Shown: piece after piece, positions 1,445 through 36,594 of the stretch | Numbering within the stretch: position 1 is the first letter of the stretch | Layout: each line of letters begins with the position of its first letter | Virus record (IMG/VR): IMGVR_UViG_2695420732_000023 | Strand: one strand, 5' to 3' | DNA: 39,472 nt | Origin: a virus | Lineage: Duplodnaviria > Heunggongvirae > Uroviricota > Caudoviricetes | Translations under genes and position numbers: made by a program | Notes under the pieces: generated by a model | Told to the model about the DNA's origin: nothing | The model's input: the letters and a program-made list of their open reading frames with translations, nothing else | Databases searched by the model: none

Positions 1445-1458
1445 TTTAAATCAATAAG

Positions 1459-2622
1459 TTACACATCATTAGTACCTTCCTTATTTTTTGACTGGGACAA
1501 ATTTGGGACCGATGGGTTCAGGATCGAGTCTATTTGCCGTGCGTGTTCGGTAAGGTGATTAGGTGCAAGGTGAGCATATCGACGAACCATTTCGATAGAC
1601 TCCCAGCCTCCCATTTCCTGTAACACTGACAACGGGACTCCGGCTTGAACCAGCCAACTTGCCCAGGTGTGTCTCAAGTCGTGAAATCTGAAATCATCAA
1701 TACCAGCCCGTCTCAGCGCCGCTTTCCAGGCTGTGTTTGCGTCATACCGCATCTTCCTTACTGTTGGCGCTTTCGTTCCGTCTGGTTTGGTACAGCTTTC
1801 CTTGTACACAAATACCCAACGGTGATGATTCCCGATTTGTTTTTTCAATACGCGACATGCAGTATCATTCAGCGCAACGCCAATTGCGCGGTTTGATTTA
1901 CTCTCTTCCGGGTTTATCCATGCCACCCGGCGCTGCATATCTATTTGTTGCCATTCAAGGTTGATGATGTTCGAGCGTCTTAAGCCTGTTGCCAGTGCAA
2001 ATTCAACAACAGACTTTAATGGCTCCGGACATTCATCAATCAGCCTTTGTGCTTCATGGGGCTCCAGCCAGCGGATCCGTTTATTCTTTGGTTGAGGCAC
2101 TTTAATAATTGGTGCCTTATCCAGCATTTTCCATTCACGCTCTGCGGCTCTTAGTAGGGCCTTTATAAATGAAAGATGCGTAGCCTTCGTTGCAACGGAC
2201 GCTGGTTTTGGCGTGTATTCTGGAACAGGTTTCCCTTTTTTTCTGCATGCTTCTGCCCTGAGTTTCCAGTTTTCCTCATGACGCCGGTTCGTCATTTTCT
2301 GCATTGCTGAATAAATTTTTGATTCAGTAATGTCTCTTAGTTGCATTCCTGCGAAATGTTGAAGCCAGAATCCGATCCGGCTTTTGTCATCGTCCAGTGA
2401 TTTTTTATGTGCTTTCTCTTCAAGCCACCTGACACACGCTTCCTCGAACGTTATATCAGGTATTTCACCAAGTTTGCTGACCCGCCATGCTTCAGCCTTT
2501 AGCTTGTCATGGAGTTCTGTCGCCTGCCTTTTGTCCTTTGTTCCAAGAGACTGTTTAAATCTTTTACCGTTCGGCAATGTGAAACTGGCGTACCATATTT
2601 CACCTCTGCGGAAGAGTGACAT
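1459..2622 (-). CDS. int: tyrosine-type phage integrase
   Basis: 387-aa ORF; C-terminal [39 protein letters not shown] matches the R-H-R-Y catalytic signature region of tyrosine recombinases; GAGGA RBS 6 nt before ATG; adjacent to tRNA. Confidence 0.9.
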
Positions 2623-2852
2623 TTTCTTTCCTCTGTTATGCCATCACCCGCGCTCACCTGGACAGTATGCAGCGGAGACTGAAGAGCCGCAATGCAGGCT
2701 TGTCGTGTTGTGAGGTAAGGAGATTTATTCTTAGTGGGATCTTTGCGTGTTGCCTGAAGACGCCCTGTGCGTATCCAGTTAATAGCAGTCGGTCTGGATA
2801 TCTTGAGAAAATGACAGGCCTCATCGAGTGTGAGGCTGTATGGCTCCATTAT
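2499..2852 (-). CDS. xis: putative excisionase / AlpA-like HTH protein (start at [15 protein letters not shown])
   Basis: small HTH-like N-terminus directly upstream of int on same strand; start chosen at internal ATG whose codon overlaps stop of upstream ORF; 3' end overlaps int by ~124 nt, so the C-terminal extent is uncertain. Confidence 0.5.
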
Positions 2853-3154
2853 TTCACCTCTTGCTGTGACATTGTTGAAAAATGGATACCAGCTCGTTGC
2901 TGCCAGACGATCCAACCGAGAGTCATATCCCATGCCATGTATTCGTTATCGCCGTTTTTTGATCTCCGACGATCTACTAAGTCACCGAAACGCTTTTCCA
3001 TGAATAATTCATAGGCTTCGCGTTCATCTGGCTCTACTTCCAGAGATACGAGTGCGATTTCATAAGCACGGCGCTCAATATCGTCTCGAACCTCTAGGCT
3101 GCTGATTCGTTCTTTGATTTCTTTAATCAGTTCTTTATTGGTAAATGTGGTCAT
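2849..3154 (-). CDS. hypothetical small phage protein
   Basis: 101-aa ORF, GGAG RBS, start/stop overlaps with neighbours (TAATG-type coupling) in leftward early operon. Confidence 0.5.
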   Translation of the reverse strand: MTTFTNKELIKEIKERISSLEVRDDIERRAYEIALVSLEVEPDEREAYELFMEKRFGDLVDRRRSKNGDNEYMAWDMTLGWIVWQQRAGIHFSTMSQQEVK

Positions 3155-3516
3155 TATGCTCCAGCCTCCGGTGCTTTTGGCATTACTGCCCAGTGAGTGA
3201 TATTGACGTTTTCAAGGTCCCCAACCTGAAATGTCCACTGCCATTCTCTGGTTTCTTTTTGTCCCCAGGTGTACCAGAGAGAACGCCAGCCAATCAGCCA
3301 GCATTCTCCATTAGCATCAAATAACAGAACACTTTCATTTGCTGGTGGCAGTTCAGCTGACACTGGTATTATTTTGTTTTCCAGTGCCGCACATTTAGCT
3401 TCAAGCGCGTCGAATTTACGTACCAGGTACTCAGCATTTGTTTCGTTCACTTTCAGATCTCGCGGTACACATTTCCCGCGAAGAAACCCTTCCATTTCGA
3501 AAACATTCATGCGCAT
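3154..3516 (-). CDS. hypothetical phage protein
   Basis: 120-aa ORF with GGAG 8 nt upstream of ATG; same strand and tight spacing with flanking early genes. Confidence 0.5.
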   Translation of the reverse strand: MRMNVFEMEGFLRGKCVPRDLKVNETNAEYLVRKFDALEAKCAALENKIIPVSAELPPANESVLLFDANGECWLIGWRSLWYTWGQKETREWQWTFQVGDLENVNITHWAVMPKAPEAGA

Positions 3517-4043
3517 TTGCGTAACTCCGATAAATCGTTAAAACGTTCCATAAACATCCCGTAGGCATGACCCGGTGCCAGTGGAATCACGTTGAACATC
3601 TCTGTTGCCGGGATGCCATCCAGTACAGGCCAGAAAGAGCCATCATCAAGCCCGAGATCACGGCGTTCGGTTGCCAGCATAATGAGATCGGCATATTTCA
3701 CTGGCGTGCTCATAACAGGAGGTAACCCGTATTTCTCACGGATTACTGCATCTATTTTTTCTTCCATCCGTTTATAGTCAGGAAGAAGGCGTTTCAGTGG
3801 TGCGGGGATGTCCTGGCAATACGCTTCTGTTGCATCATGCATTAACGCTTCAAAAGCAAATTCCTGCGGCACCAGCTGGCTGCAAAGCACCGCATGTTGG
3901 GCGACACTGTAGAAGTGAGAAAGATGACCGGCAAAGCGGCAGATATTTGAAAGGGAAACCGCGATATCGTTAATCACGATGTCGTCTTTATTTATCCTGT
4001 CATAATAAAAATGCTTCCCGGAAAAAGTTTTAATAAATGACAT
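3507..4043 (-). CDS. HD-domain phosphohydrolase (YfdR-like, putative 5'-deoxynucleotidase)
   Basis: contains H...HD motif context (SVAQHAVLCSQ ... LMHDATEAY) typical of HD superfamily; start set at ATG (MSFIKTF) preceded by GGAGAACAAA; resembles CPS-53 yfdR by recall. Confidence 0.65.
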   Translation of the reverse strand: MSFIKTFSGKHFYYDRINKDDIVINDIAVSLSNICRFAGHLSHFYSVAQHAVLCSQLVPQEFAFEALMHDATEAYCQDIPAPLKRLLPDYKRMEEKIDAVIREKYGLPPVMSTPVKYADLIMLATERRDLGLDDGSFWPVLDGIPATEMFNVIPLAPGHAYGMFMERFNDLSELRKCA

Positions 4044-4170
4044 TTTGTTCTCCACGTATATGCGCTGCACCGCGCTGAGTTTGGGTAAAAGGAAGCCCTC
4101 ACCATCCGGTGATTATTGAGTTAATTACGTTTCCATAAATGCCCCCGCAGGGGCATTTGCAGTAATGAAA

Positions 4171-35480: not shown

Positions 35481-35895
35481 GCCATTCAATATCTGGCGCA
35501 CCGGAAGTATCGACCAGCTCCAGTACGTCCAGATAATCCAGCCACAAATTATATTGCGCCAGTTCCTCACCTTTCAGGCGACCAATCGCTGCTTTACCAG
35601 GCCATTGCTTACTGTATATGTATTCGTTGACCTGATTAATCAATTGCTGCTTTTCCAGTTCGGCTGCGGCAATTTGTTCCTCATGAGTTGGCGGTGGAAT
35701 TTCCCCCCAGGTGGGAAGGCCATCATCACCCGCGATGCGTACTTTCCCTTGCAACGTTCTGTCTTCAATAAATTCCAGGTAAGTGTCATATGTCACTTCG
35801 ACAATATCAGCAAGTTCCCATCCGGCCTGTTCATATTTCGCCACATCATTTTTAGCGAAAAAACTATTATTTGAGGCGCTATAAACCATTTCCAT
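35452..35895 (-). CDS. alternative tail fibre assembly chaperone (Tfa') in inverted orientation
   Basis: 147-aa; C-terminal region resembles Tfa C-terminus (APDIEWPTPP versus APDVIWPELP in Tfa); convergent with Tfa. Confidence 0.75.
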   Translation of the reverse strand: MEMVYSASNNSFFAKNDVAKYEQAGWELADIVEVTYDTYLEFIEDRTLQGKVRIAGDDGLPTWGEIPPPTHEEQIAAAELEKQQLINQVNEYIYSKQWPGKAAIGRLKGEELAQYNLWLDYLDVLELVDTSGAPDIEWPTPPAVQAR

Positions 35896-35896
35896 A

Positions 35897-36399
35897 TTAA
35901 TACCCTACTGCAATATAAAAAACTGATTCACCAGCGTCCTGAGAACCTACCCCCGGAACGCCAGACCAGGCTTTGTTAATGAATGCAAAACTGGTATTAC
36001 TCAGATCAGATGCTCTGTACATCGGGCTGAACATCCAGTAGTTGGCTCCATATGTTTGTCCGAAAACAATGCCATAGCACTGATTTGTAAATGGCGTAGA
36101 AAATAATTTTCCACCAGTACCAGCGATAGTCCCGAATCGCATCTGGAACCCATTCGGGAAATTAATTCCGCCTGCCGGTGAAGACCAGTAAGACATATCA
36201 GGTATTTGCCCAGCACTATTTCCCACGTTTTTTGTTGCAACGGTTCCTAACCCAAGATTAGCTCTTGCATCAGATTTATTTGTTAACTCATAAAGATTAT
36301 TTGCCTTTTGAAGTGCTCCTGTTATGCGTAAATCATCACCAGCGGCAACGGTTCCGACTGTCGTGCCCACATCCCTTTTCGCCGCTTCTCCTAAACCAA
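35897..36399 (-). CDS. alternative tail fibre variable segment (Sv'), lacking its own start in present orientation
   Basis: minus-strand frame open from crossover site to stop at 35897; glycine-rich fibre-like sequence; would fuse to fibre constant part after inversion. Confidence 0.6.
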
Positions 36400-36411
36400 C
36401 ATTTATGAAAA
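36385..36411. repeat. invertase crossover site (inverted partner)
   Basis: reverse complement matches 34428-34442 at 14 of 15 positions (TTGGTTTAGGAGAAG versus TTGGTTTGGGAGAAG). Confidence 0.5.
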
Positions 36412-36465
36412 TGCAGAAATAACGAGCAAATGGCATCATTCCTGCTTTTGCTAGGGAGATCTACC

Positions 36466-36594
36466 ATGCTTATTGGCTATGTACGTGTGTCAACAAATGA
36501 CCAGAACACAGATCTACAACGTAATGCGCTGAACTGTGCAGGATGCGAGCTGATTTTTGAAGACAAGATAAGCGGTACAAAGTCCGAAACCTAG
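36466..36594 (+). pseudogene. pin: Pin/Gin/Hin-family serine DNA invertase, truncated after 42 codons
   Basis: MLIGYVRVSTNDQNTDLQRNALNCAGCELIFEDKISGT matches the N-terminus of Pin-family invertases by recall, then stop; a full invertase is ~190 aa. Confidence 0.8.

Follow-up and report, generated by a model that had tools for sequence, protein, structure and literature searches.

Identity and organisation of the prophage

The DNA analysed here is a viral sequence of 39,472 nucleotides (IMG/VR record IMGVR_UViG_2695420732_000023; Duplodnaviria, Heunggongvirae, Uroviricota, Caudoviricetes), called the window below, and positions refer to it. It holds a prophage in which lambdoid control genes are joined to an HK97-type head and a Mu-type contractile tail, which raises the question of whether the element is a mosaic of its own or a phage of a type already known. 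An original prediction, made for positions 1445-36594 from the sequence alone, had described it as a modular mosaic. The analysis indicated that it is very probably a temperate, cos-packaging lambdoid myovirus of the SfV/SfII/e14 type, present as a prophage in the 3' end of thrW and with its larger part within the window.

Comparison with the chromosome of E. coli O103 strain ML775 (NZ_CP193495.1) showed 100% identity over 34000-39472 and 1300-20000, and the sole mismatch to this RefSeq record in the first 20.4 kb was one homopolymer base (T8 versus T7) at 13580-13587. The best matches in the phage collection were the Shigella phages SfII, SfI, SfIV and SfV together with induced E. coli phages such as vB_EcoM-689R6 and vB_EcoM-720R4, with 95-98% DNA identity. 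Block-by-block BLAST mapping against SfII (KC736978/NC_021857) showed collinear blocks, continuing across cos, at 1399-4154, 5447-5827, 6229-13214, 14444-15500 (89%), 16801-17151 and 17152-34432, the last being a single unbroken block of 17,281 nt with 97.6% identity. Overall, about 97% DNA identity was found over roughly 29 kb in the same gene order. The early region, in the order int-xis ... cI / cro-cII-like, replication, nin-like, Q and lysis genes, was present and collinear with the SfII group, and the structural proteins, compared by open reading frame (ORF), were all full length with 92-100% amino acid identity to SfII. The features held in common with SfII and its relatives SfI, SfIV and SfV were the att core, thrW, integrase, immunity, replication and nin-like genes, holin, HNH-cos-terminase, head and tail. 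Four cassettes were unlike SfII: yfdQ/yfdP (4155-5446), Q and a TIR-domain gene (13215-14443), Rz-Rz1-bor with a spacer (15500-16800), and everything right of 34433. In contrast to SfII, the element also has no gtr/oac cassette and no insertion sequence (IS) elements.

The gene content and order listed in the original prediction were all present as stated, according to RefSeq annotation and Pfam. The element is modular and an exchange joint is real, but the prediction had itself named collinearity with a single known phage type as the outcome that would speak against a mosaic. This was the outcome obtained, since the element was collinear gene for gene with SfII and, at about 97% nucleotide identity, with one known type as a whole (SfII/SfI/SfIV/SfV, e14-like). 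The combination of lambda-style control, HK97-style head and Mu-style tail is no new hybrid; it is on record in the literature as the mark of this phage group. The prediction describes a known phage type correctly while making too much of the mosaic, and nothing in it lies outside known phage biology.

The group has already been described by lambdoid control, an HK97-type head and a Mu-type tail (PMC3636060; PMC3851460). Both papers cite Allison et al. 2002 and PMC3636060 also cites Allison et al. 2003; going by these citing papers, the architecture of SfV was published in 2002-2003. SfI was reported as a myovirus (Myoviridae) with thrW integration next to proA, cos packaging and a relationship to SfV, e14 and lambda (PMC3636060), and the head proteins of SfI, SfII, SfIV and SfV were assigned to the HK97 family (PMC3851460). 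Such prophages are common enough that 122 of 5,426 complete E. coli genomes (about 2%) held at least 80% of positions 1300-20000 at about 96-97% identity.

Integration site and boundaries

The integration target is the tRNA-Thr(CGT) gene thrW (1369-1444, forward strand; ARAGORN and RefSeq annotation), with proA (1-1254; RefSeq annotation) upstream of it. The 48-bp attL core at 1399-1446 is repeated exactly at attR, and SfII homology begins exactly at 1399 (SfII 24835). On the window scale attR lies at 42159-42206, about 2.7 kb past the window end, as a single exact copy of the 48-bp thrW 3' end, and the 125 bp to its left matched the SfII attP arm at 95.8%. A search for repeats of at least 12 nt of the thrW 3' end returned attR only, with no internal att copy between 1446 and 42159. 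Because the 48-bp repeat at attR adjoins an SfII-type attP arm, the prophage measures about 40.8 kb (1399-42206), and the insertion has proA on one side and the yagP/pao region on the other in E. coli O103. The right boundary first given as 36594 turned out to be the stop codon of an invertase stub of 41 residues, and the prophage continues beyond it to attR. A tyrosine integrase (1459-2622, reverse strand; PF00589) with 99.5% amino acid identity to SfII Int and an excisionase-like helix-turn-helix (HTH) protein (2499-2933, reverse strand; HTH_17) were identified next to attL. The element is one with site-specific integration in the thrW 3' end, an SfV-type tyrosine integrase and the matching att core.

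Packaging, head and tail modules

An HNH endonuclease gene (16801-17151, forward strand; Pfam, SfII map and HK97 annotation) stands directly upstream of cos, as in HK97, and cos was placed at 17151/17152. Genes for TerS (P27/Terminase_4), TerL, YmfR, portal, S78 prohead protease, HK97-family capsid, connectors and tail terminator follow at 17269-24806 on the forward strand, with 92-100% amino acid identity to SfII. The element combines cos packaging by HNH, P27-type TerS and TerL with an HK97-family portal, protease and capsid. Pfam searches and protein comparison bore out the HNH-TerS-TerL-portal-protease-capsid series proposed to be in HK97 order, with cos between HNH and TerS and with the Phage_portal, Peptidase_S78 and Phage_capsid families in place. 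Identity to the HK97 proteins gp2-gp5 was 26% for TerL, 32% for portal, 36% for protease and 26% for capsid, and no DNA-level similarity to HK97 was found. The element differs from HK97 in its TerS, which is of the P27/Terminase_4 family, and in its tail module, which is unrelated.

The tail and baseplate genes occupy 24815-34125 on the forward strand and encode gp38-like, sheath, tube, chaperone, tape measure, gpN-like, gpP-like, gp45, gp46, gp47 and gp48/YmfQ proteins of Mu type, with 97-100% amino acid identity to SfII. Pfam matches in this block were DUF2635, sheath, tube, chaperone, tape measure, DNA_circ_N, GpP-like, Gp45, GP46 and Baseplate_J, and YmfQ was taken from RefSeq. The proposed sheath-tube-tape measure-baseplate succession of Mu was likewise confirmed by Pfam and protein comparison: ten proteins from gp38 to gp48, the chaperone and the invertase stub matched Mu in Mu order with 27-45% identity, the sheath with 36% over its full length. 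Shared with Mu are the order gp38, L, M, chaperone, tape measure, N, P and gp45-gp48 and a Gin/Pin-type fibre switch; unlike Mu, the element has no Mu-type head, integrates site-specifically, is packaged from cos and carries a truncated invertase. DNA similarity to Mu was limited to the 151-nt invertase stub. A transposase, which together with Mu-type ends would mark a Muvirus, was neither annotated nor detected in the element, Mu A and B not having been among the queries. Because the likeness to HK97 and Mu exists at the protein level only (26-45%), the joints to these modules are ancient and family-wide and not specific to this prophage.

Lambda-type lysis cassette and the Q-holin slot

Similarity to lambda DNA was confined to 15034-16329 (93.8% nucleotide identity) plus two stretches below 100 nt, and 60-nt windows across 15076-16240 were mostly 93-100% identical to lambda, with one at 87%. 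The genes concerned are endolysin R (15016-15492, forward strand), Rz (15489-15950), Rz1 (15709-15891) and bor/iss (15982-16323, in RefSeq 15982-16275; reverse strand), whose products are 95%, 97%, 100% and 87% identical to those of lambda. The R-Rz-Rz1-bor cassette is as close to lambda as first described; the holin in front of it (14686-15012, forward strand) is not lambda S, as the label of lambda-type lysis genes would imply, but an SfII-type protein with 99% amino acid identity to the SfII holin, and it is unrelated to lambda S in DNA sequence. Compared with SfII, it is Rz, Rz1 and bor that are of lambda type. The bor homologue is named Iss (increased serum survival lipoprotein) in RefSeq and diverges from Bor at the N-terminal signal-peptide end.

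Three-way comparison placed the left crossover of the cassette within R at about 15034-15076, the sequence being SfII-like to about 15075 and lambda-like from 15076. A recombination joint had been predicted at 16.3-16.8 kb and was found at about 16,390 (16385-16395), where lambda-group homology upstream of bor stops at 16390-16394 and an SfIV-type spacer (85% nucleotide identity) begins from about 16389 and extends into the HNH gene. The bor-spacer-HNH sequence is common to phages vB_EcoS-733R4, vB_EcoS-640R1, vB_EcoS-716R1 and vB_EcoS-813R8 at 98.8%, and the thrW prophage of strain AVS0747 matched 14659-23775 as a single block at 97.5%. The right joint is thus not private to this prophage and is found in other E. 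coli phages and prophages too. The sole recent lambda-derived piece is the 1.3-kb lysis/bor cassette. The left half has its closest relative in this AVS0747 prophage, which is a truncated one: beyond its head-closure gene comes yahC directly, the tail module and a stretch of chromosome having been deleted.

The late antiterminator gene Q (13153-13533, forward strand; PF06530, 126 amino acids) belongs to another exchanged cassette. Its product was 43% identical to SfII Q and had a weak, local match to lambda Q (BLASTP 27% over 55 amino acids, E=0.001). Next to it, a cargo gene ('moron') for a TIR-domain protein (13573-14412, reverse strand; Pfam TIR_2, PADLOC 'TIR-TM' model E=1e-57) takes the place of SfII orf49 and orf50. 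The G+C content of 13001-14000, which holds the TIR gene, was 37%; the three 1-kb windows before it had 52-55%, and the structural region had 55-60%. Despite the name of the 'TIR-TM' model, the protein is not obviously a membrane protein, because no 19-residue hydrophobic window above 1.6 was found in it. The T8/T7 difference at 13580-13587 alters the end of this protein (...NKKKK and stop versus ...NKKRNNLPP and stop) and may stem from slippage, from sequencing or from a difference between assembly versions.

Among the 122 genomes, the Q-holin slot of related thrW prophages holds a KAP NTPase, a DNA methyltransferase or an SDH-family protease, and because other genes are carried there the slot looks like a hotspot for cargo or defence genes. 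Shiga toxin (Stx) phages carry their toxin genes in the same slot.

Invertible tail-fibre segment and truncated invertase

The tail-fibre gene in its current orientation (34129-34887, forward strand) encodes 252 amino acids, of which the N-terminal 97 or so are constant and common to SfII and e14, and the variable C-terminus starts at a crossover site. The left crossover site, CTCTCGAAAACC TT GGTTTGGGAGAA, lies at 34406-34431 (26 bp) and holds the exact repeat of the e14 P segment, TTGGTTTGGGAGAAGG, at 34418. SfII/SfV similarity stops exactly at this site. The right site, TTCTCCTAAACC AA CATTTATGAAAA, lies at 36386-36411 (26 bp) and is inverted relative to the left one. Both have an identical central AA dinucleotide and stand in inverted orientation, as in an inversion switch; they were found with a hix/gix-style core pattern and were not reported by an inverted-repeat finder at default stringency. 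Between them lie two Caudo_TAP chaperone genes, the tfaE-like tfa (34887-35480, forward strand) and the tfaP-like tfa' (35452-35895, reverse strand), and an alternative fibre C-terminus from 35897 to about 36398 on the reverse strand. Simulated inversion brought the constant N-terminus in frame with the alternative C-terminus to give 263 amino acids, with the second Caudo_TAP chaperone directly behind it. Compared to K-12 e14, the two chaperone genes are in flipped orientation, which fits a history of inversion. The G-segment-like invertible fibre region of the original prediction is real and structurally intact, but it is closer to the P segment of e14 than to the G segment of Mu.

The invertase gene itself is not intact. 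Instead of an adjacent serine invertase of about 190 amino acids, only 41 codons remain (36466-36591, forward strand, with the stop ending at 36594), 85% identical to the N-terminus of Mu Gin and 94% identical in nucleotides to e14 pinE. The pinE/gin homology breaks at 36589/36590 and RefSeq marks the gene as partial; its first 124 nt are kept. In switches of the Gin/Hin type, the Fis-dependent recombinational enhancer lies within the 5' part of the invertase gene. A search of the 5,426 complete E. coli genomes showed the exact junction of the stub with the following GmrSD gene in 288, and about 1,190 others matched the intact pinE part only. The stub, the GmrSD gene and a dinI fragment also form the end of a related prophage that strain MJ-T carries at tRNA-Pro. 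Since the junction recurs in 288 genomes and at a second att site, the truncation is an inherited feature of a lineage. With its own invertase truncated, the segment would need a trans-acting invertase to invert, and the fibre is probably locked unless another Pin-family enzyme in the cell acts on it. Within this family, PinQ has been reported to act on e14, and PinE on the G segment of Mu and the H segment of Salmonella (PMC12529663).

The right-end layout agrees with that of e14 and vB_EcoM-689R6 (ON470584), namely ymfQ, stf, tfa, tfa', stf', pin, a type IV restriction gene and att. In addition, ymfL/ymfM, terminase, ymfR, portal and ymfQ share 95-98% nucleotide identity with e14, and the crossover repeat is the same. 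Unlike the element, e14 is inserted in icd, uses another integrase and retains few of the structural genes, most having been lost. Its pinE is intact with mcrA behind it, whereas here pin is cut at codon 41 and followed by GmrSD. From SfII, the element differs in that its fibre C-terminus lies within an invertible P-type segment, after which come the stub and GmrSD.

GmrSD gene and right arm

The GmrSD-family type IV (modification-dependent) restriction enzyme is encoded at 36690-38639 on the reverse strand (649 amino acids; Pfam, PADLOC mREase_IV 1435 bits). The gene sits where e14 and vB_EcoM-689R6 carry mcrA, also a type IV enzyme, and where SfII/SfV carry gtr. No gtrA-gtrB-gtr(type) or oac cassette was found next to attP and no similarity was detected to SfII 17281-24709, the part of SfII with the gtr and oac genes; the place that holds the gtr/oac cassette in a serotype-converting S. 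flexneri phage is taken by the invertible segment, the stub, GmrSD and gene fragments. The cargo of this prophage is Bor/Iss, the TIR-domain protein, Dam and GmrSD.

The right arm starts at 38640-39472 with dinI and umuC-type (DUF4113) pseudogene fragments (RefSeq annotation). Two long ORFs that overlap these fragments, 38718-39002 and 39010-39393, had no family hits. Beyond the window (L001 24600-28160) two hypothetical genes, a ParA gene and a fragment of an SOS-response peptidase (SRAP) are followed by attR. Likeness of about 81% to the lambda b region was seen at 38848-38944 and at window-scale 41896-42025 (lambda 24162-24259 and 27330-27464), the second stretch lying just left of the SfII-type attP arm.

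Immunity switch and early genes

The CI repressor (6598-7290, reverse strand), with an HTH and an S24 autopeptidase domain, and Cro (7388-7648, forward strand) were both 100% identical to SfII, and neither showed detectable similarity to lambda. They are followed by a CII-like YmfL (7641-8201, forward strand) with a 5-bp tandem duplication near the 3' end of its gene. The description of cI, cro and Q as very close to lambda is correct for position and role but was rejected for sequence, given the absence of CI and Cro similarity and the weak match of Q (above). In general, the element resembles lambda in the order of control, replication, Q, lysis and cos-adjacent packaging genes and in R, Rz, Rz1 and bor (87-100% in amino acids). 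It differs in CI, Cro, Int, head and tail, which have no detectable similarity to those of lambda, and its tail is contractile whereas that of lambda is flexible. The genome-wide DNA relatedness that defines a Lambdavirus was not found.

The region at 8194-13150 (forward strand) encodes YmfM-like, O-like replication, PerC/YfdN-like regulator, Dam methylase, LexA-like, RusA, KilA-N and DUF968/HNHc proteins, all 95-99% identical to SfII. The O-like replication protein was 36% identical to lambda O over 149 amino acids, and no annotated gene or ORF hit resembling lambda N was found. The PerC-family (YfdN-like) transcriptional regulator, at 9480-9974 on the forward strand, is carried here by a prophage of an O103 strain. 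Prophage regulators of the PerC/Pch type can affect virulence genes of the locus of enterocyte effacement (LEE) in attaching-effacing E. coli.

Leftward early genes at 2849-5741 (reverse strand; RefSeq annotation, Pfam) are yfdT, yfdS, yfdR (5'-deoxynucleotidase), yfdQ (DUF2303) and yfdP. The yfdQ/yfdP block (4155-5446) is missing from SfII. For SfV, the annotation lists genes of the YfdQ family and its neighbours, and an orf28-32 gene cluster has been reported in SfV and SfIV (PMC3851460).

Proposed working and alternative explanations

By homology with characterised relatives, CI with its S24 self-cleavage domain would keep the prophage repressed until the SOS response sets in, Cro and the CII-like protein would set the decision between lysis and lysogeny, and Q would antiterminate late transcription. 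HNH, TerS and TerL would then cut at cos (17151/17152) and fill an HK97-fold capsid matured by the S78 protease, to which the Mu-type contractile tail and baseplate would be joined, and holin, endolysin and Rz/Rz1 would free the particles. These steps are as expected from the relatives, while gene integrity, gene order and the two att sites were seen directly. Homologous and illegitimate exchange has probably swapped the four cassettes relative to SfII, the 1.3-kb lambda-type R'-Rz-Rz1-bor block being the most recent-looking, and the invertase was destroyed when the GmrSD gene replaced everything after codon 41.

Several points weigh against the element being a complete temperate phage of this type. 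The position of cos was taken only from the deposited termini of the SfII genome, and the right 2.7 kb of the prophage lie outside the window and could be viewed only in the RefSeq record that matches it. RefSeq flags frameshifts in two early genes; in ymfL, also called frameshifted there, the duplication GTGGC GTGGC at 8155-8165 shifts the frame compared to SfII for the last 10 or so codons only. The right arm carries several pseudogene fragments.

These last defects, namely the 5-bp duplication in the cII-like gene, the two flagged early genes and the dinI, umuC and SRAP fragments, together with the truncated invertase, would also be expected of a decayed, non-inducible cryptic prophage like e14 of K-12 that is kept only for its cargo genes. 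Such a remnant is nevertheless unlikely. Unlike in e14, none of the packaging, head, tail, lysis, integration and immunity genes is shortened, and all are 92-100% identical to their counterparts in the viable phage SfII; both att sites are intact, and the length of about 40.8 kb is close to the 41.5 kb of SfII. The recurrence of the invertase truncation in 288 genomes, at more than one att site, suggests spread with a mobile phage lineage. On the sequence evidence, an intact inducible phage is more likely than a cryptic remnant.

The composition of the right arm bears on a different possibility, that thrW holds two elements one after the other, with an SfV-type prophage up to the stub (about 36.6 kb) and then the remnant of an unrelated, separately arrived island running from GmrSD to ParA. 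The G+C content drops to 41-43% past 36 kb, and the block has no SfII similarity and holds dinI, umuC, ParA and SRAP fragments typical of other mobile elements. Against this, no internal att copy separates the two parts between 1446 and 42159, and the SfII-type attP arm adjoins attR to the right of the block. The stub, GmrSD and dinI fragment also occupy the att-proximal end of the related tRNA-Pro prophage, and e14 and SfII carry cargo at the same position (mcrA in e14; gtr and oac in SfII), which makes a tandem very improbable.

Finally, a recent and unique hybrid made in this strain from lambda, HK97-like and Mu-like phages, to which the 94-97% identity of 15034-16329 to lambda and the joint at about 16.39 kb might point, is hardly credible and already effectively refuted: there is no HK97 DNA similarity, Mu DNA amounts to the 151-nt stub with head and tail proteins at 26-45%, the complete arrangement is already present in SfII, SfI, SfIV and SfV at about 97% nucleotide identity, the same left half occurs in at least 122 complete E. 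coli genomes, and the bor-HNH junction is found in other phages (98.8%) and in AVS0747.

Significance

The discovery value of an SfV/SfII/e14-type prophage at this locus is small, as the architecture was long published and is common in E. coli. Its practical value lies in annotation, with boundaries at 1399 to about 42206 in place of 1445-36594, and in the strain cargo, which consists of a phage-borne Iss/Bor, a TIR-domain protein and a GmrSD restriction enzyme. A further idea, quite improbable as it stands, is that the stub-GmrSD junction marks a successful phage lineage in which a defence gene displaced the invertase, with the host-range switch of the fibre either frozen or run by the Pin-family invertases of other prophages. 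If true, a trans-controlled P segment could serve as a host-level device against phage adsorption, a role recently reported for e14 with PinQ (PMC12529663). Overall, the variable slots of these phages, between Q and holin and next to att, are sites at which defence and virulence cargo is exchanged.

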